Shown here one piece after another: positions 1,907 through 51,572 of a stretch of DNA of 64,000 nt. How positions within the stretch are numbered: position 1 is the stretch's first letter; the number at the start of each line of letters is the position of its first letter. Under the pieces are notes generated by a model, which was not told where the DNA came from, searched no databases, and worked only from the letters and a program-made list of their open reading frames with translations. This stretch comes from an uncultured Desulfurococcales archaeon (GTDB lineage Archaea > Thermoproteota > Thermoprotei_A > Sulfolobales > WANQ01). Location: assembly GCA_964467535.1 (NCBI GenBank), contig CAYXRT010000001.1, positions 86,036 through 150,035 of the forward strand, given 5' to 3'. The position numbers and the translations under genes are program-made.

Positions 1907-2320
1907 TTACTCACCCTTCCTTTCAACTATTTCAAGTAATACCCCATAAGCAGACTTAGGGTGTATGAAATTTATTATCCTCTTTCCGTGAGCTACTTCT
2001 CTTGGCTGCTCATATACTATCTCAATCCCCTTTTCTTTTAGTTCCTTTATAGCTTTAGCTATATTGTTTACTCTTAGTGCTATGTGATGTAGTCCTTCAC
2101 CTCGCTTTTCAATAAACTTAGCTATAGCACTATCAGGAGCTGTTGCTTGTAAAAGCTCGATATATGTTTCACCTACTTTGAATATAGCTACTTTAACTTT
2201 CTCTTGAGGAACTTCTTCAATTTTTATTAATTCTAAGCCTAGTATGTCTCTATAAAACTTAATAGCTTCATCTAAGCTCTTTACAGCTATACCTAAATGA
2301 TCTACTTTTAATATTTTCAT
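1907..2320 (-). CDS. mce: Methylmalonyl-CoA epimerase (glyoxalase/VOC fold)
   Basis: 137 aa. The start (KVDHLGIAVKSLDEAIKFY) and the LHHIAL motif are typical of VOC-family epimerases. Lies between the two mutase subunits. Confidence 0.85.
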   Translation of the reverse strand: MKILKVDHLGIAVKSLDEAIKFYRDILGLELIKIEEVPQEKVKVAIFKVGETYIELLQATAPDSAIAKFIEKRGEGLHHIALRVNNIAKAIKELKEKGIEIVYEQPREVAHGKRIINFIHPKSAYGVLLEIVERKGE

Positions 2321-2322
2321 AA

Positions 2323-2808
2323 TTAGACCCCTTTCTCGGCTTTACGTTTCTCTATGGCTAGCTTGTATACGTCTTCTATTATTTTCCTCAGTGAGGTTCC
2401 AGGTCCATGTACCACTGCAATACCTATTCTTTTCAATATAGGTATATCAGATGGCGGTATAATTCCTCCAAAAAGTATCGGTATCTTCAATCCCTTCTCT
2501 TTCACAAGCTTAGCTAAGTCTTGAGCAAATTCAATGTGTGAGCCAGATAATATGCTTATGCCTATAACATCAACGTCCTCTTCAATTGCTGTACGTATTA
2601 CACTCTCAGGTGTTTGATGAACACCTAAATATACTACATCAAAACCAGCGTCCCTTAGTGCTCTAGCAATAACCTTAGCTCCTCTATCATGTCCGTCAAG
2701 GCCTATTTTAGCTATTAAAACCTTAATTCTCCTGCCTCCTATAACAGGGTCTACTTTTACTCTAAGCTCCTTACATATATCAATAGACATTGATTCTGCA
2801 GGCAACAT
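2323..2808 (-). CDS. mcmB: Methylmalonyl-CoA mutase, small B12-binding subunit
   Basis: Cobalamin-binding signature [25 protein letters not shown] (DxHxxG). 161 aa. Confidence 0.9.
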
Positions 2809-2874
2809 ATCACCATTGTATAAAGTTATAGATCCATAACACTACACTATTGGAGTGAAGTAATAAGGTATACT

Positions 2875-4518
2875 TTAATTATTTTTATGAATTTTATTAA
2901 CTTCCTCCTCTAATATTTTCCTTGCTTTTTCGAGAAGTGGAGGATTTAATACAAAACCGGGAATGAAAGGTATCTGGGCTTCCCTTTTACATGCACGTTT
3001 TACAATTTTACTTGAACCATAGTTAAGGTATCCATTGATGAAACTTCTAATGAGTTCCTCTGCTATTCTTGGTTTATTATATAATTTAAAAAATGTAAAG
3101 TAGGTAAATTCAGCTATATCCCATGCCATCACGTTTTCATTCTCAGTACTTCTCGCTTGTTCTAAATCAACTAGATATACATACTTTGAATCGTTTGAAA
3201 TGATAAAGTTATCTGGCTTGCAGTCACCTATGGCATATCCTTTACTATGTATTATTGCAAGTACCTCACCTACCCTGTAAAATTCCTTGGGTCTTATAAT
3301 TACTTCCTTAGTTTTTACCATTATCCCTGGAAGTAGAGATAGCCCTTGAATAAATTCCCTAATTAAGATCTTTTTAGATAAATGAACGCCTAAAATCCTT
3401 GGTGTTAGTATATTGTTCTTAGCATCTCTTAACCTTAACATGAAATGATATTCTCTACATAATCTTTCAATAGCATCTAAATAGAAGTCTATTGCTGTTC
3501 TCCCGAGCACTTCAACTATAAACCATTTAAATGCTGATAATGAGGCATACTCCTTTATGACTATAGGATATTTCTCACCATTCTTTTCTATTTCATATAT
3601 TACTGCAGTATATATTCCTGTTCTACGCTTATCTATAATCCTAGCTTTACACCCTTCACCACATAATGACTTGAGTAATTCATTAAGCCACTTGCTTCCT
3701 TTTAATATAATTCCTTCCTTTAACTTTAGGAGTATTTCAGGATACTTAAGCTCTTCAGGGACCTCATACCTTCTTCTCTTTACCTTTGAAGTTATCTCGA
3801 ATGTTATATGTGAAATCTCTGGTAGCCCAGCATACGCATGCGCTAAATAAGAGGCAATGCCTTTAATTAATAGTGATGCTATATTTAGTACCTTATCTAC
3901 TACATTGATTTTCTTTGAGGTCTTTAGTTTAACATAGTCTTCATTTATATACTCTAATATTCCTTCATCTATGAGTTTATTTATTATATCCTTATATTCG
4001 TTTCTAAGTCTCTCACGAATTCTCGGCGTATTAAGCAGTTTTGAATAGCTATACTTTAAAGGTGTATACAACTGAGCTCTTATTCTCATCTTTCTTATCG
4101 GGAAGTATTCTATTGGTACTTCTATGTCTTCGTTCATAACGCTTAGTTTAGCTAGATCATTTACTCCTTCAAGAACTATTCTATACCTATATAATGTTAC
4201 AATGTTTCTTGCTTTGCCTTTATCGTATATTATCTCTATGGGAGCTAATAGCCTTCCTGCAATGAATTCGCCCAAGAAGCCAAAGCTTGCATCAAGTACT
4301 ATTAGTTTGTCATTGGTAATCAGAAGTGCCAATTTTGTCTTATTGAAGTCTTTATAATAGTATCTTAATCCGTAGGGGTACTTAGGCACTATGACTAAGA
4401 CATCGTAGTCGCTATCAGGTCTAGCATATCCTCCTATCCTAGATCCATATAATATTATCCCTTCAGCATTAGGATATAATTCGAGCACAGTTGTTATTAT
4501 CTTGTTATATTCGCTCAT
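2875..4518 (-). CDS. Fusion protein: N-terminal minimal (Pol-beta type) nucleotidyltransferase plus C-terminal RIO/Bud32/Kdo-like atypical protein kinase domain
   Basis: N-terminus LYGSRIGGYARPDSDYDVLVIV matches the GS...DxD NTase motif. C-terminus has IVIKEY (Lys), GDCKPDNFII (catalytic loop D-x-K-P-x-N) and LVDLEQA (DFG-equivalent). Confidence 0.6.
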   Translation of the reverse strand: MSEYNKIITTVLELYPNAEGIILYGSRIGGYARPDSDYDVLVIVPKYPYGLRYYYKDFNKTKLALLITNDKLIVLDASFGFLGEFIAGRLLAPIEIIYDKGKARNIVTLYRYRIVLEGVNDLAKLSVMNEDIEVPIEYFPIRKMRIRAQLYTPLKYSYSKLLNTPRIRERLRNEYKDIINKLIDEGILEYINEDYVKLKTSKKINVVDKVLNIASLLIKGIASYLAHAYAGLPEISHITFEITSKVKRRRYEVPEELKYPEILLKLKEGIILKGSKWLNELLKSLCGEGCKARIIDKRRTGIYTAVIYEIEKNGEKYPIVIKEYASLSAFKWFIVEVLGRTAIDFYLDAIERLCREYHFMLRLRDAKNNILTPRILGVHLSKKILIREFIQGLSLLPGIMVKTKEVIIRPKEFYRVGEVLAIIHSKGYAIGDCKPDNFIISNDSKYVYLVDLEQARSTENENVMAWDIAEFTYFTFFKLYNKPRIAEELIRSFINGYLNYGSSKIVKRACKREAQIPFIPGFVLNPPLLEKARKILEEEVNKIHKNN

Positions 4519-4528
4519 ATCATATCAG

Positions 4529-5445
4529 CTACTTTACTCTTATACCTAACTTCTCCGCCACATAGTATATCATTCCTAATACACAGTTATATCCACTACC
4601 CTTAGATAAGGGATTATTCTCCCTAATTGTAACAATATATTTGAGATCCTCGTCTACTTCAAGCATCTTCCTATATACTTCATCAGCACTATAAATACCT
4701 GATTTAAGTAAATTACTTATTATGTCTTCCCATTCAATTATCTTCGCTATAGCTTTGTTAATTACCTTATTTGCAGGTTCATCACAGACTCCAAAGTGGG
4801 TGACCATTATCTTGCCTGCATTTTCTATAAGAAGTCTCTTAAGACTCTCTTTAGCTTTATCTCCATCAAACATTGGTACAGCTACTGGTATTAACCTTCT
4901 ATCATAATATAATCCTATGGCATCTCCTGTTATAAGAACATTATACATAATCCTATCTGATAAGATAATGATAGTGGATCCAGGACCCAATATATGTATA
5001 AGAAATCTCATAGACAACCTTATAAGTTACGATTGAACATGGACAAAGTATCATATATAGCCTTAACACACATCCATATAGATCATGGTGGAGGAACAAG
5101 TCTATTAATATCAAATTTAGGGGCAAAGCCAAAGGTAATAGTACATCCTAAGGGAGCCAAGCATATAATTAATCCTGAAAAGCTTTGGAAAGCAGGTCTA
5201 GCTGTTTTAAAAGATATAGCAATAACTATGGGAAAACCCGAGCCAGTACCTTCGGACCTAGTTTATAGTATAAATGATAATGAAGTCATAGATTTAGGCA
5301 ATGTAAAGGTTAAAGCAATATACACACCAGGGCATACTCCTCATCATGTATGTTACTTAGTTAAACCAGAAGATGCAAGTACACGTTTATATCCTTGTGG
5401 TTCAGGGTCCAATAGTAATATGTGTTCTGATACTTCTTTTAACAT
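4529..5445 (-). pseudogene. MBL-fold metallo-hydrolase disrupted by an internal 420-bp inversion (4955-5374) plus a 1-nt frameshift
   Basis: The first 23 codons (MLKEVSEHILLLDPEPQGYKRVL) are on the minus strand at 5445-5377. The next parts are on the PLUS strand at 4956-5374: SDKIMIVDPGPNICIRNLIDNL, then ...ALTHIHIDHGGG...TPGHTPHHVCYLVKPED. The C-terminal half is on the minus strand from 4954 (RIMYNVLITGDAIG...MVTHFG...). The ORF-track entries 4529..5017(-) and 4994..5461(+) are fragments of this one gene. Confidence 0.8.
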
Positions 5446-5457
5446 GTCTACTCTCCC

Positions 5458-6414
5458 TTAATGTACTATTGTTATGAATTCAAAAATCTTCTTTGATGCT
5501 GTTATAGGATCTATAAGCCCCTGTAGAACTTTATCTATTATTTCTCTAACTTCATTCCTGTTAGTTATTAACTCCTTAATTCTCTCCTTGAGCCTCCATT
5601 TTAGTAGAAGATCTAGTTCAAATTTTCTTCTTCTTTTTCTTCTCTTGGTTAATTGATTAGTTTTTATTAAGTATTCCATGTGTTCTATCACTTTATTAAT
5701 AACGTCTTTTATACCCTTATTCATTATTGCAGCAGTTAATAATATTGGAGGCTTCCATCCCTCTCGTATAATACCCTCTAATGCAAATTTAACTTGGCTT
5801 AGTGTCAGCTCTGCTTCAGGTTTATCAGCTTTATTTATGACATATATATCTCCTATTTCCATAAGACCAGACTTTATCGCTTGTATTTCATCACCTGCTC
5901 CTGGCATTAATACTACTATAACTGTGTCTACGGCATTCATTATCTGTATATCTGATTGTCCTGCCCCCGTGGTTTCAACAATAATGTAATTGTATCCTAC
6001 TGCATCAAGTATCTCTATTGATAACAACGCTTTCAACGGTAATGATCCTTCACTTAATGACGTCATACTTCTCATAAATACGTTATCTCCTAATACACTT
6101 TGAAGTCTTATACGATCTCCTAATATAGAACCTCCAGTTAATGGACTTGAAGGGTCTATTCCTATGATGGCTATCTTTTTATTCATTTTCTTTAAGATCC
6201 TTGTCATAGACGCAATTAATGTACTCTTACCGGCTCCCACTAATCCTGTAACACCTACAACATGTGCCTGTCCTGTTCTAGGCCAGATGAGATCAATTAT
6301 GTTTAATAATACATCTGGATTAACTTCTATTAATGATATCAGCTTTGATAATGATCCTACATCTCCATCTAATGCACTACTAAGTAATGACTCTACGCTA
6401 CTTCGTATAGTCAT
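5458..6414 (-). CDS. meaB: MeaB/ArgK-type methylmalonyl-CoA mutase-associated GTPase (G3E family)
   Basis: P-loop GVTGLVGAGKST, switch motif VETTGAGQ and NKADK guanine-specificity motif. Heads the mcm operon. Confidence 0.88.
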   Translation of the reverse strand: MTIRSSVESLLSSALDGDVGSLSKLISLIEVNPDVLLNIIDLIWPRTGQAHVVGVTGLVGAGKSTLIASMTRILKKMNKKIAIIGIDPSSPLTGGSILGDRIRLQSVLGDNVFMRSMTSLSEGSLPLKALLSIEILDAVGYNYIIVETTGAGQSDIQIMNAVDTVIVVLMPGAGDEIQAIKSGLMEIGDIYVINKADKPEAELTLSQVKFALEGIIREGWKPPILLTAAIMNKGIKDVINKVIEHMEYLIKTNQLTKRRKRRRKFELDLLLKWRLKERIKELITNRNEVREIIDKVLQGLIDPITASKKIFEFITIVH

Positions 6415-6505
6415 TTATTCTTCCCAGGTTGCGACTATATACTTAGCATTCAAACTTAAACTTTATGTACCTAGACATCAGCTTATCTAAATAGGTTCGA
6501 CTAGC

Positions 6506-14176: not shown

Positions 14177-14271
14177 TGTAAAGATTTGCTCCTGAACTTA
14201 TAAGTTAAGTTACCTCTAATATAACATCGATTACCCTAGAGTCAGTGACTGTTCTCGTGTAAAGGTTTTTA

Positions 14272-14297
14272 TAGGTCTATGTAGGTCTTGTAGGTCT
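14272..14297 (+). repeat. Three direct TAGGTCT heptamers (14272-14278, 14282-14288, 14291-14297), a candidate subterminal recombinase-binding array at the IS left end
   Basis: Read directly: aTAGGTCTatgTAGGTCTtgTAGGTCTttt, about 20 bp upstream of the tnpA start. The reverse-complement heptamer is present at the right end. Confidence 0.5.
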
Positions 14298-14317
14298 TTT
14301 TATTCTGGAGATGGTCT

Positions 14318-14950
14318 GTGGAGCGTCATTATAGTACTCGGGAAGTTTGTGAGATTCTGGGGATTGCTAATCGTACTCTTCGTAGGTGGATTAAGGAAGG
14401 TAAGATAAGAGCAGTTAATATTGGTGGTAGGTAGAGAATACCAGAAAGCGAGATTAAACGTCTTCTTGGACAACCCGTAGAGCAGATAACAGTTCCTAAA
14501 GTAGCTCGTGTTGTTATCTATGCTCGTGTAAGTGGAGCTAATCAGAAGAAAGAGTTAGAGAATCAAGTAGAAGCACTAAAGGAATATGTAGAGCAAAACA
14601 ACTGGAAGTTAGTAGGAGTAGTCAAGGATATTGCTAGTGGTCTTAAAGAGGATAGAAGAGGATTATGGAAACTTATAGAAATGGCTAAGAAACATGAGTT
14701 CGATGTACTACTAGTGGCTTATAGAGATAGATTAACAAGGTTTGGATTCAAATACCTTGAAGAACTATTCAAGGCTTATGGAGTAAAAGTCATAGTAACT
14801 TTCCAAGAACCGGCTAAGGACTTCTACCAAGAACTGGTTGAGGATTTGATAGAAATAGTGACTTCATTTGCTTCGAGAATCTATGGTAAGCGTAGCCATA
14901 AGTACAGGAAGGTGGTGGAAGCAGTTGAACAAACAATTAAAGACCCTTGA
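14318..14950 (+). pseudogene. tnpA: IS607-type serine recombinase TnpA (MerR-like HTH plus resolvase catalytic domain) with an in-frame TAG at 14432-14434
   Basis: GTG start. HTH region YSTREVCEILGIANRTLRRWIKEGKIRAVNIGGR*RIP, then the catalytic region VVIYARVSGANQK...DVLLVAYRDRLTRFG. The stop replaces the residue expected in GG(R/H)(W/R)RIP. Confidence 0.8.
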
Positions 14951-16913
14951 AAGAACAGTAGTATTAACATCACTACCATTAACTAAGGCTAAGGTTGAGG
15001 TACTTAGTCATGTCTATCAAGTCTACGGTAGAATCCTTACTGAAGCACTAGAATACATGTGGAACAATAATATTACTTCATGGGTTAAAGCTAAGAAAAC
15101 GTTGTATAAGAGGTTTAGGAAGAAGTATCCCGATATCCCTTCACACTATATACATGAAGCTATTCGTGATGCCTCTCAGAGAATCAAGAGCTTCAGGAAG
15201 CTCAAGAAAAAGGGATTAGCTGAAACCGAGAAACCAGTAATTAGGAGATGGAGTGTTGGATGTGACAACCAGTTATGGAAGTTATCATTTGAGGGAGTAA
15301 GAATAGCTACTCATGAGGGATGGGTAAACGTATCATTACAGTTCCATAAACTGTTCTGGAGATACTATAATAGAGGATGGACTCTTAGAAGCTCTGCTAG
15401 ATGGAAACTCATAGGAAGTAAATTATACCTCTATGTAGTATTCATGAGGAATATAGAGGTTAGGAGCTATGCTCAACTAGAATCTATGGTATTGATATTA
15501 ACGAAAATAATGTAACAATATATTGTTATCCTGAAAATAAAGCAATAACTATAGTTACCAACTTATCAAAGATAGTGCTTGGGTACGCTTATAGAAGAGC
15601 AAGGATACAGCAGAAATGGAGTAAACTATTTGGCGCTAAAGATAATAGGAGACTTAAAATAGCGTTGAGGAAACTTAGAGAGAGGAATGTTAAAAGAGAT
15701 ATTAAGCAGAAACTTGCTAGACTTATTACTGATATTCTTAAAGATGGTGTAGTTGTTCTTGAAAAACTACCTAAGAAATTCCAAGACAAGGTTCTTGAAG
15801 AAAGTAGGAAAATAAATGGACTCGACGCTCATAGGTTAAAGCAGTCAAGCATACGAGGAATACTTAAGTTGATAACTGAAAAACTAGAGGAACATAGCAT
15901 TCCCTATGTCTTAATTAATCCTTCTCATACTTCCTCTACATGTCCTATTTGCGGTTCCAGACTCGTTCCGATGACGAGTTAATGGGGGAGGATAGTATGC
16001 ATAACACGTTATATATTACTGATAAAAGAGCTATGGAAGCATTCGGTTATATTGTTGGAGCTGTATTGGGAGATGGTACAGTTTGGAGAAGAAATAGAGG
16101 AGATATTGATGTATATTTATATAATCAGAATATCGGATTAATAACTGAGTTTTGTAAATGCGCACATACATTAAGGTTAAAGTATAGGATAAAAGAAGTT
16201 ATTCGCACTCTGAAACATCCAGAAAGAGAAACATTGCGACTAGTTAAATATTACATGGTTATTACGTACTCTTCACCTATAGGAGAAATAATAGCAAAGT
16301 ATAAACAAGCACCATACAAATGGAGAGTCCCTAGGGAGTTTATTAATAATAAAAGCTACCGCAGGGGTTTTCTAAGAGGTTTAATTGATACAGAGGGGTG
16401 TATATCTATAATTTATAGGCGAAATAGAAAGCCACTTATTAAATTCGTCATAGTTATATCATCATGCTACAACGCACTAGCGGAGCTCAAGAATTATTTA
16501 GAACTTAAGGATAACATAAGGCTTCATTTAAATTACAATAATAGTAAGAAAAATACTTACGCTTTGTATACTTATGATAGACAAGAAATCTTAAAAATTA
16601 CTTCCCTAATAAAGTATCTTGCTCACACAAGAAAAAGTAAGAAATTTACAAAAGTACTTGAGGTTCTTTGAATAGTTGTGCCCAGAGGAATGGTTGGAAA
16701 CCAAGGATAATGACATGTTCTAGATGTGGATTCACGCATGATAGGGATGTCGTGGGGGCTATGAATCTAGTTAGAAAGTACCTCCTAGATGTGGGGGGTT
16801 ATGCCGTCTACTCCCCGAAGGGTGCCCATGACCACCATGTAGAGTGGCTCGTAGCCACAATGAAGCATGAAGTTGAGGCTCAACCCGCCCTAGCGAGACC
16901 TATAATGACTTAG
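14868..16913 (+). pseudogene. tnpB: TnpB (IS605/IS607 OrfB, RuvC-like RNA-guided nuclease family) with a frameshift near 15464-15490 and a 697-bp insertion at 15981-16677
   Basis: Three frame segments: 14868-15515, 15464-15982 and 16678-16913. RuvC-I IYGIDINENN, RuvC-II VVVLEKL, zinc finger CPICG...CSRCG and RuvC-III HDRDVVGAMN are all recognisable. Confidence 0.8.
15997..16671 (+). CDS. LAGLIDADG homing endonuclease (double-motif, monomeric type), free-standing ORF nested inside tnpB
   Basis: The two LAGLIDADG motifs are FGYIVGAVLGDGTV and GFLRGLIDTEGCI. GGAGG lies 6 nt upstream of ATG 15997. The ORF is uninterrupted to TGA at 16669-16671. The ORF-track start at 15940 lies in tnpB sequence and is probably not used. 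Confidence 0.8.
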   Translation: MHNTLYITDKRAMEAFGYIVGAVLGDGTVWRRNRGDIDVYLYNQNIGLITEFCKCAHTLRLKYRIKEVIRTLKHPERETLRLVKYYMVITYSSPIGEIIAKYKQAPYKWRVPREFINNKSYRRGFLRGLIDTEGCISIIYRRNRKPLIKFVIVISSCYNALAELKNYLELKDNIRLHLNYNNSKKNTYALYTYDRQEILKITSLIKYLAHTRKSKKFTKVLEVL

Positions 16914-16930
16914 GACGGGAAACGGTCATA
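16790..16930 (+). ncRNA. Candidate TnpB-associated right-end guide RNA (omega/reRNA) scaffold
   Basis: A markedly GC-rich stretch in an AT-rich genome overlapping the tnpB 3' end. Hairpins are GTGGCT-cgt-AGCCAC (16844-16858) and GTTGA-ggc-TCAAC (16872-16884). The position matches where omega RNAs are encoded in TnpB elements. Confidence 0.3.
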
Positions 16931-16940
16931 AAAGTATAAA

Positions 16941-18407
16941 ATGCTGTTTATTAAAGGAAGTGGTGAAGTGGTGATTCCTATTGTGTTGCGAGTATATAAT
17001 ACATTAACTCGTAGTCTTGAGGTTTTTGAGCCTTTTGAGCCTGGATTAGTAAGAATGTATGTATGTGGACCAACTGTTTATGATTATAGTCACCTAGGAC
17101 ATGCAAGAACATATATAGCATTTGATGTAATTAAAAGATACCTTATATTAAAGGGATATGATGTTGTTCACGTCCAAAATATAACGGATATAGATGATAA
17201 GATAATTAATAGGGCAAGAAATGAAGGAGTTTCATGGAAGGATATAGCTGATAGATATATTAAGGACTACCTTGAAGCTCTAGAAAAGCTTAATATACAT
17301 GTTCATTTACACCCAAGAGTTTCAGAACACATAAATGAAATCATAGAATTTATTCAAGATTTAATAGACAAAGGCTATGCCTATGTAGCTCCTAGTGGCA
17401 GCGTTTACTTTGATGTTGATAAATATGATGATTATGGAAGGCTAAGTAATAGGCTTACCAAGGAATTATGGGGACAAGAAGAAGAATTTATTAAGGAAAA
17501 GAAGAATCCATATGACTTCGCCTTATGGAAGGCCGCTAAACCGGGCGAGCCATGGTGGGAATCACCATGGGGTAGGGGTAGACCTGGATGGCATATTGAG
17601 TGCTCAGTCATGAGTTCAAAGTACCTCGGAGACCAATTTGATATACATGGTGGAGGACAAGATCTTATATTTCCGCATCATGAGAATGAGAGAGCACAAA
17701 GTGAAGCAAGATTTGGTAAAAGACCATGGGTGAAATATTGGCTTCATGCAGGTCTCTTTAGATTTGCTGGAGAGAAGATGAGTAAGAGTTTAGGAAATAT
17801 TATTACCTTAAGGGAGGCGTTTAAGAAGTGGAAGCCTGAAGTAATAAGATTATGGCTTGCTACGATTCATTATAGAAAACCTGTTGACTTTTCTGAAGAA
17901 GCTTTAATTCAAGCTGAAAGAAACTACAATAGGTTGGTAAATGCTATTGAAATTCTTAAAAAGCTTATGGAGGAAGTTGATGTAGATTTTAAGCTTAATG
18001 AAAACGACATAAAGCTTCTTAGGGATTTAATTGCTATTAGGAAAGGTTTCTATAATGCTATGGATGATGACTTTAATGCTAGTGAAGCATTTAGTTATGT
18101 CTATAAACTTACAACAATAGTATTTAAGGAATTAAGCGTTAAACCCAAATACGCATTAATCCTTAAGGCATATAAGCTAATGTGGGAGTTTAATCAAGTA
18201 CTAGGAGTATTAGATAAATACTTTATTGAATCTCCTGTGGAAGCTAATCTAGTCAATAAGCTCATAGAACTTATCATTAACATAAGACAAATACATAGGA
18301 GGAGAAAAGAATACGAAATAGCCGATTGGATTAGAGAGGAATTAGCTAAGCTCAATATAAAGTTATTTGACTATAAAGGCAAAACAACTTGGATTATTGA
18401 GAGGTAA
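16941..18407 (+). CDS. cysS: Cysteinyl-tRNA synthetase
   Basis: [18 protein letters not shown] (HIGH-type motif), KMSKSLGN and WHIECS. The true start may be one of the in-frame GTG/TTG codons at 16968-16986, giving the usual (M)...[10 protein letters not shown]-terminus. Confidence 0.9.
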
Positions 18408-51472: not shown

Positions 51473-51572
51473 GCCGGGGTGCCCGAGCGGACTAAGGGGC
51501 CGGCCTGGAGACTACCTGGAAAGCCGGTGGGGCGCACGCCCCGCGCGGGTTCAAATCCCGCCCCCGGCGCCA
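51473..51572 (+). tRNA. tRNA-Ser(GGA) with an 11-nt intron at canonical position 37/38 (51511-51521); CCA encoded
   Basis: Acceptor GCCGGGG/CCCCGGC, anticodon stem CCGGC/GCCGG, loop CUGGAG|A, long variable arm UGGGGCGCACGCCCCGC and T-arm GCGGG-UUCAAAU-CCCGC. A GC-rich island in AT-rich DNA. Confidence 0.88.

Follow-up and report, generated by a model that had tools for sequence, protein, structure and literature searches.

The subject of this analysis is an insert of 697 bp in a tnpB gene, which codes for an RNA-guided nuclease, within an insertion sequence (IS) of the IS607 family. The IS lies on a 64-kb stretch of DNA, hereafter the window, from an uncultured Desulfurococcales archaeon, probably a hyperthermophile. 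Loci with which the window was compared carry L numbers. The insert consists almost entirely of a LAGLIDADG homing endonuclease gene (HEG), and the following features, all on the forward strand, make up the locus:

14252..16926, forward strand: IS607-family insertion sequence, the host element, about 2.67 kb counting the 697-bp insert
14318..14950, forward strand: tnpA, a serine recombinase gene with an N-terminal helix-turn-helix (HTH), now a pseudogene (Pfam Resolvase, 1.8e-26)
14925..15980, forward strand: 5' part of tnpB, coding for WED/REC, RuvC-I, RuvC-II and the first CxxC (from open reading frames [ORFs] and intact orthologues of 352/353 amino acids [aa])
15981..16677, forward strand: mobile cassette of 697 bp with the HEG (lacking in L009, L008 and >40 homologues; step-like identity profile)
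15987..15991, forward strand: Shine-Dalgarno-like GGAGG, read directly, 5 nt before the HEG start, with a putative role in its translation
15997..16671, forward strand: LAGLIDADG homing endonuclease ORF, 224 aa and a stop codon (Pfam, structure prediction, Foldseek, substitution rates)
16678..16913, forward strand: 3' part of tnpB, coding for the second CxxC, the RuvC-III HDRD motif and the C-terminal tail (translation, TNB match of the fused protein, alignment and consensus fold)

The upstream tnpB frame reads ...HTSSTCPICGSRLVPMTS and then meets a TAA at 15980-15982, the last residues before this junction stop codon being ...CPICGSRLVPMTS; the downstream frame, (S)CAQRNGWKPRIMTCSRCGFTHDRDVVGAMNL, restarts at 16677/16678. 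Deletion of 15981-16677 in silico joined the two frames as ...LVPMTS/CAQRNGWKP... (the slash marks the junction), and the C-terminal part of the fused TnpB matched PF07282, the Cas12f1-like TNB domain, at 2.3e-17. The spacing at the site in the fused window sequence, CCGATGACGAGTTGTGCCCAGAGG, equals that of the empty allele L009, CCGATGACGGGTCATGCCCAGAGG, as the deletion predicts. The insert falls inside the TnpB zinc finger, after its first CxxC, and separates the second CxxC and RuvC-III (HDRD) from the rest of the protein. The HEG accounts for 97% of the insert, the non-coding portion being only 22 nt (a 5' flank of 16 nt and a 3' flank of 6 nt). The tetranucleotide AGTT is present at both junctions (15977-15980 and 16674-16677), which makes the position of the cassette ambiguous by 4 nt (alternative 15977-16673). 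The stop codon of the truncated tnpB is supplied by the first bases of the cassette; this TAA is found in all lineages that carry the insert and is followed by a Shine-Dalgarno-like motif (GGAGG in the window, GGGGAG in the other variants) and the ATG of the HEG, a conserved order which suggests that translation of the HEG is coupled to that of tnpB. An initial annotation, made from the letters of the window, had already read the two tnpB frames, the codon-perfect effect of removing the insert, the single ORF with two LAGLIDADG motifs and short flanks, and the paired AGTT in the same way; it had also reported the GGAGG, which is present, but with a spacer of 6 nt rather than 5 nt.

A search with the reconstructed TnpB showed that relatives hold tnpB both with and without the insert. 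More than 40 homologues, of ~430 aa and 66-84% identity, are uninterrupted and read ...SKLVPMTG(Y/H/F/C)AQRNGWKP... across the site, and SKLVPMTGYAQRNGWKP is intact in 42 of the 86 top homologue clusters. At the DNA level the empty site is represented by L009 (GTTCCGATGACGGGTCATGCCCAGAGGAATGG) and L008, neither of which has extra bases relative to the window after removal of the insert. The initial annotation had described the target as multi-copy, for which the support is only indirect. A contig of 100,956 nt from a metagenome-assembled genome (MAG; GCA_054043265.1, JBPKTM010000008.1) carries an intact copy (P0007; L008, 4001-5312) and a second, frameshifted copy (P0047) with an 80-aa tail, both of them HEG-free. 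Since one contig holds both copies, the target can be multi-copy in one genome, although the window has a single copy, no further member of the tnpB family being found within its 64 kb. Four diverged lineages of tnpB carry this cassette, all of them at one site, in more than 10 independent assemblies and at least five genomic neighbourhoods:

Lineage A: the window and L021
Lineage B: L010 (a Desulfurococcales MAG), L006, L007, L011, L022 and L023
Lineage C: L001, L002 and L013
Lineage D: L003, L004 and L005

Comparison of these lineages gave the following nucleotide identities for the insert and for the tnpB sequence on either side of it:

A versus B: insert 99.0-99.3% over 697 nt (window versus L010, L011, L022 and L023), 5' flank 69-76%, 3' flank 79%
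A or B versus C: insert 94%, 5' flank 75-78%, 3' flank 63-73%
Comparisons with D: insert 82-83%, 5' flank 72-77%, 3' flank 69-85%

When the A and B segments were compared by BLAST at full length, the flanks gave similar values, with 75% identity for the 487 nt upstream of the junction and 82% for the tail of 236 nt. For the window itself against lineage C, flank identity is 64-76%. In sliding windows of 100 nt along the alignment with L010, identity is 72-78% up to the 5' junction, where it jumps to 98-100%, and from the 3' junction on it is 74-80%. Synonymous divergence (dS) of the HEG is 0.014 between A and B, 0.16 between A and C and 0.5-0.65 to D, while that of the 5' part of tnpB is 1.3-1.7 for the same kinds of pairs, i.e., the HEG values are 3 to 100 times lower. 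Because the HEG dS is so low and the identity step falls exactly at the junctions, vertical descent of the insert with its host gene is ruled out. Presence or absence of the insert is thus polymorphic at one site, and where present the insert is more similar than its flanks; this pattern indicates that the cassette moved between tnpB alleles that had already diverged, and every time to one and the same site, as is characteristic of homing. Within lineage B, L010 and L022 occupy different genomic locations. From about 400 nt ahead of the insert, through it and on to the end of the element (+800), they share 97-100% of their nucleotides, but farther upstream only 71-90%. This mosaic, with its tract of ~400 bp, possibly reflects co-conversion of flanking markers during homing.

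The insert is predicted to encode a LAGLIDADG enzyme that is monomeric, has two motifs and retains both acidic residues of the catalytic pair. It passed the Pfam gathering thresholds for LAGLIDADG_3 (PF14528; 37.8 bits against a cut-off of 22.5, in two stretches) and LAGLIDADG_1 (PF00961; 26.9 bits against 23.1). The first motif, YIVGAVLGDGT, contains Asp26 and the second, FLRGLIDTEGC, contains Glu133; D26 (VLGDG) and E133 (LIDTEG) are invariant in three variants and near-invariant in an alignment of 37 sequences. The same Asp/Glu pairing of metal ligands is known from I-DmoI. Among the variants the ratio of non-synonymous to synonymous divergence (dN/dS) is 0.17-0.26, so the protein has been kept by purifying selection. 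An AlphaFold2 model built on the 37-sequence alignment has the tandem alpha-beta-beta-alpha-beta-beta-alpha topology of the superfamily, with a mean predicted local confidence (pLDDT) of 93.7 and a predicted template-modelling score (pTM) of 0.90; this alignment included the distant relatives, and one of three sequences gave a pLDDT of 44. Foldseek searches of the PDB with this model returned LAGLIDADG proteins only (bI3 maturase, WhiA, I-Tsp061I, I-DmoI, I-SceI and PI-SceI), with E-values of 1e-8 to 1e-6 for the last four, about 1e-8 for I-Tsp061I, I-DmoI and I-SceI, and template-modelling (TM) scores of 0.65/0.71 for I-Tsp061I. PDB searches by sequence, with the HEG alone or with a three-sequence profile, gave no significant match.

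In sequence space the HEG is isolated. Its closest relatives among 5.8 billion clustered proteins form only two other clusters, at 91% and 79% identity, and an exhaustive HMMER search of 1.84 billion representatives returned 76 distant relatives, separated from the HEG itself by a gap down to E = 8e-11. All of the distant relatives that were tested are two-domain LAGLIDADG_3 proteins, and hhalign related the HEG to a bona fide I-CreI-like family with 91% probability. No relatives were found in viral contigs.

The usual place for a HEG is a self-splicing intron or an intein in an essential host gene. We assign a probability of about 0.8 to the reading that the insert is a free-standing HEG, without intron or intein, that homes into the conserved tnpB of IS607-family elements in Desulfurococcales-type archaea. 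This is in essence what the initial annotation had proposed, and the empty alleles, the four lineages, the identity steps at the junctions, the dS values and the predicted fold all support it. Such a gene can sit naked in an ORF because tnpB, as part of another selfish element, is a gene that the cell can do without. The homing site is assumed to span about 30 bp, approximately 5'-GTTCCGATGACGGGT/YATGCCCAGAGGAATGG-3' (the slash marks the insertion point), a stretch that encodes LVPMTG(Y/H)AQRNGW between the two CxxC pairs of the zinc finger.

On this homing model the HEG would be transcribed together with tnpA and tnpB, because there is no room for a promoter in the cassette. The cassette would provide a TAA for tnpB, a putative ribosome-binding site (GGAGG or GGGGAG) and, 14-17 nt on, an ATG, and translation of the HEG would be coupled to that of tnpB. 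The product, which profiles and structure prediction suggest is a monomeric two-domain enzyme, would cut uninterrupted tnpB copies at the site if it behaves as other members of its family. Repair of the double-strand break on an HEG-bearing template would then transfer the cassette, and at times some of the sequence next to it, to the allele that was cut, a step for which the recurrence of one site in four lineages, the step-like identity and the possible L010/L022 tract are indirect indications. The recipient tnpB would be left with a 352-aa fragment without the second CxxC and RuvC-III, and a tail that is translated poorly if at all; transposition dependent on TnpA should be unaffected. TnpB is most likely inactivated by the insert, since with the second CxxC and RuvC-III split off the 352-aa product would be catalytically dead unless the pieces reassemble. 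The cassette is, in other words, a hyperparasite of the transposon.

The host element has a TnpA with an HTH and a serine-recombinase domain, an overlapping tnpB (start at 14925, inside the end of tnpA at 14950) and conserved ends, as is typical of IS607 elements. It aligns end to end with L003, L004 and L010 at 82-84% identity, and the similarity ends at 14252 and 16926, the left boundary being approximate (~14245-14260). A conserved TAAAGGTTTTTATAGGTCT motif marks the left end, and the right terminus reads ...CTTAGGACGGGAAACGGT. A 9-nt tandem duplication (GTAGGTCTT) at 14280-14300, near the left end, does not occur in the other copies. The tnpA orthologues of L001, L003 and L010 are intact, 210 aa in length, with HTH_17/MerR and Resolvase domains; in the window an in-frame TAG at 14432-14434 replaces a Trp codon (TGG) of the relatives. 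The window's tnpB has in addition lost 1 nt near 15466 (mapped against L009 and L003), which leaves ORFs at 14868-15515 and 15575-15982. The copy in the window is therefore already a decayed pseudogene copy of the element, a point that the initial annotation had missed. Decay is also evident in other HEG-bearing copies: L010 has a CAG to TAG change two codons into the tail and five non-synonymous versus two synonymous differences from L022, L003 lacks 10 nt at the tnpB stop codon, and L001 has a second insertion in tnpB.

Some observations fit less comfortably with the homing model. L003 and L022 are among several HEG-bearing copies in which tnpA, the 352/353-aa 5' ORF of tnpB and the tail ORF are all intact; selection on a split protein or on a transcript from which the insert is excised could account for this, as could, equally, a recent insertion. 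Ordinary recombination could explain the L010/L022 mosaic. The nearest structural neighbours of the HEG include bI3 maturase and WhiA, which are LAGLIDADG proteins but not nucleases, so the fold alone is no proof of nuclease activity. The target site and the 4-nt stagger of the cut are both assumed from the behaviour of the family. Finally, crenarchaeal splicing endonucleases tolerate relaxed forms of the bulge-helix-bulge (BHB) motif, and our evaluation of that motif used a canonical or moderately relaxed model.

The alternative that survives best, improbable though we consider it, is that both TnpB fragments (352 aa and ~70-80 aa) are translated and come together again, perhaps at the zinc site that they share, as a working RNA-guided nuclease, which would make the insertion nearly neutral. 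Phages provide a precedent, as mobE splits nrdA of Aeh1 and the enzyme still works (PMC2988022). The window also has a TTG at 16668, in the frame of the tail, that overlaps the HEG stop codon (TTGA); this overlap is, however, missing in lineage D. An in-frame Met ahead of the second CxxC is conserved in all alleles, but it is no adaptation to the split, since the uninterrupted alleles have it too. L003, apart from the deletion at its tnpB stop codon, and L022 do keep both parts intact, as described above, while the frameshift in the window and the nonsense codon early in the L010 tail, together with the 5:2 excess of non-synonymous changes in that tail, are not what would be expected of parts that still function. 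The split itself lies inside the zinc finger, and RuvC-III is lost from the main fragment.

Less probable again is an intron of the archaeal type, with a relaxed or non-canonical BHB, that carries the HEG and that the host splicing endonuclease cuts out of tnpB/omega-RNA transcripts, leaving TnpB functional. Archaeal introns with LAGLIDADG HEGs are well known from rRNA genes of this phylum, and two intron-encoded enzymes, I-DmoI and I-Tsp061I, rank near the top of the structural matches of the insert product. Excision would be codon-perfect, both tnpB parts are open in several HEG-bearing copies, and the 3' region of tnpB is structured and GC-rich. The geometry of the motif was taken from an 11-nt intron at the canonical position 37/38 of tRNA-Ser(GGA) in the window (51473-51572), which forms a clean helix-bulge-helix with 4/4 bp in the central helix and an outer helix of 5 bp. 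(Owing to this intron, ARAGORN mis-called the anticodon of the tRNA.) At the tnpB junctions of the window, L010, L001 and L003, no register from -8 to +18 nt gave a 4-bp central helix with flanking helices, and the partial matches are not common to the variants. An unrestricted scan finds 15-46 chance matches per locus, and for this reason the motif is meaningful only at mapped junctions. Junction co-folding in three variants was no better than in shuffled sequences (within ~1.6 standard deviations of the mean; z -1 to +1.6). Few parts of the insert vary more than the nucleotides near the junctions, which show no pattern of compensatory change. The non-coding part of the insert amounts to only 22 nt, and disabling mutations accumulate in the copies that bear the HEG.

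We accordingly rejected a BHB intron, as the initial annotation had done, and its exclusion of an intein and of a group I intron likewise stands. A group I or group II intron was rejected since no ribozyme was recognised and just the 22 nt lie outside the ORF; Rfam gave nothing at its gathering threshold, and only a spurious long non-coding RNA match at E-values up to 10, over 15800-17000. An intein was rejected because of the TAA at the junction and the position of the ORF in another frame with its own ribosome-binding site and ATG. A split intein of the "fractured gene" kind was also rejected: the exons abut at residues that are adjacent in intact TnpB, with no extra residues. The paired AGTT had initially been taken for a 4-bp target-site duplication arising from a 4-nt stagger, and this interpretation is not supported. 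The pair AGTT/AGTT of the window corresponds to GGTT/AGTT in lineage C and to ACCT/GGCT in lineage D, and the interrupted alleles, once freed of the insert, are no longer than the empty sites. A target duplication is not a product of homing by double-strand-break repair. We regard the repeat as coincidence or as microhomology from the original insertion rather than the footprint of a staggered cut.

That the LAGLIDADG gene is vertically inherited and immobile (degenerate, domesticated or maturase-like), with the empty alleles arising by precise loss, might draw on the presence of bI3 maturase and WhiA among the top structural matches and on the non-functional stages predicted by models of the HEG life cycle, but we give it next to no weight, given a HEG dS up to 100 times below that of the adjoining tnpB, an identity step exactly at the junctions, retention of the catalytic Asp and Glu with a dN/dS of about 0.2, and the lack of any intron for a maturase to act on.

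Taken together, it is unlikely that a tnpB bearing the HEG is still alive, whether through RNA processing of the cassette independent of a BHB or through reassembly of TnpB fragments. Were this the case, IS607 elements would house two homing nucleases that cooperate, one of them protein-guided and the other RNA-guided, and the inserts would be the first intervening sequences with a HEG to be known from an archaeal gene for a protein or a guide RNA. In combination with the second HEG family described below, the tnpB/omega-RNA module would then be a dedicated, long-standing landing pad for LAGLIDADG genes in Thermoproteota.

The 3' end of the element has a character of its own. The tnpB tail and right end (16678-16926) have a GC content of 50%, versus ~36% (35.6%) for the window, and contain two conserved hairpins, GGGGGG..CUCCCC and GUGGCU..AGCCAC, in an alignment and consensus fold in which L001 was present as a truncated sequence. 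The right end of the window has a 7-bp inverted repeat, CCTAGCGAG..(22 nt)..CTTAGGACGGGAAACGGT, which extends to 10 bp (CCCGTCCTAG/CTAGGACGGG) in relatives that read GTCCTAG, such as L009. By analogy with TnpB systems in general, this region is probably the scaffold of the omega-RNA (the guide RNA), or else a TnpA site.

A second, unrelated HEG family is inserted in this tail. L001 (3402-3892), and also L002, have an insert of 477 nt that encodes a 152-aa, single-motif LAGLIDADG protein similar to I-MsoI and I-CreI (PDB 3fd2 at 1.5e-16). The insert sits 113 nt before the tnpB stop codon, between ...LLDVGGR and ALCLPKGAH..., in the loop of the conserved GGGGGG...CUCCCC hairpin. Two other IS607 clades have relatives of it, 49-57% identical, at the homologous position, and the TnpBs of the three clades are only 33-38% identical:

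L001 and L002: mapped length of the second-family insert 477 nt
L014-L017, ~3965-4480: 516 nt
L018-L020, ~3990-4470: 477 nt

All of these lengths are multiples of 3 and each insert has in-frame stop codons; no BHB was found at the second-family junctions. For one of the clades the empty allele L024 places the site at GGGGGTC/ATGCCGTTGCCCCC (the slash again marks the insertion point). Compared with L024, one stem of L014 is swapped (GGGGG/CCCCC to CCGCCC/GGGCGG), which wholly changes the encoded peptide, and the swapped arms CCGCCC...GGGCGG remain complementary across the insert. The hairpin is encoded by a pseudo-palindrome, GGGGGGTTATGCCGTCTGCCTCCC, and homodimeric LAGLIDADG enzymes recognise pseudo-palindromes; by this analogy the target of the second enzyme may be the hairpin-encoding DNA. 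The presence of two unrelated LAGLIDADG lineages in the same gene suggests that HEG invasion of tnpB is recurrent.

Two further observations concern other tnpB copies. P0058, a called protein of 700 aa, combines an unrelated TnpB-like N-terminal half with the C-terminal half of this tnpB family from ...QFWKYYNGGW on, and looks like an IS inserted into another IS or a fusion made by gene calling. In L003 at 5226-6462 and L004 at 1983-3219 (minus strand), a more distant tnpB near the HEG-bearing IS607 consists of ORFs of 279 aa and 139/141 aa; nothing is inserted between the two, and the copy looks frameshifted.

On our interpretation, the locus is a clear natural example of hyperparasitism between homing nucleases, in which a protein-guided LAGLIDADG enzyme invades and puts out of action the RNA-guided TnpB on which the transposon relies for its own retention. 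Invasion by HEGs may be an overlooked route by which TnpB/IS607 elements decay in archaeal genomes. The HEG family is also of interest as a thermostable meganuclease scaffold, isolated in sequence space and with a well-defined predicted target of 30 bp.

The known systems closest to the insert product are the HEGs of archaeal rRNA introns, such as I-DmoI of Desulfurococcus mobilis, I-Tsp061I, I-PorI and I-ApeI. They belong to the same superfamily, are monomeric two-motif enzymes with an Asp/Glu pair, come from the same host phylum and likewise have a highly conserved target, the best structural TM scores being about 0.65-0.71. Unlike the insert described here, which has no BHB and lies in a protein-coding transposon gene, they are encoded in spliced BHB introns of rRNA genes, and their sequences have no similarity to the insert HEG that phmmer can detect. 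In its arrangement the insert is closer to the free-standing HEGs found inside phage coding regions, namely mobE in nrdA of Aeh1, mobA in T4 gene 60 and seg43 in gene 43, which also have their own translation signals and lie directly inside an ORF with neither intron nor intein (PMC2988022). The phage enzymes are, however, of the HNH or GIY-YIG type and split essential genes whose pieces remain functional, whereas the insert encodes a LAGLIDADG protein, is found on an archaeal chromosome, occupies a dispensable selfish gene and, on the evidence above, has more probably inactivated it. In fractured genes, where split inteins flank a free-standing HEG (Dassa et al., 2009; PMC2677866), the host gene is similarly interrupted by a free-standing HEG, but the window's insert has no intein halves.

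IStrons (chimeras of a group I intron and an IS) and TnpB/omega-RNA homing are likewise cases of nested selfish elements that involve IS607 or IS605 tnpB and rely on a double-strand break and recombination. In IStrons the intron serves the transposon, whereas the insert HEG would invade the transposon and disable its RNA-guided nuclease. We found no report in the literature of tnpB as a homing site. As far as we could find, then, the arrangement is new: a LAGLIDADG HEG that lies, without an intron, within an ORF of an archaeal chromosome and has its homing site in the IS607 gene for an RNA-guided nuclease. Its parts are known and are here combined, the protein being of the kind encoded in archaeal introns and the arrangement that of the phage HEGs that split genes.

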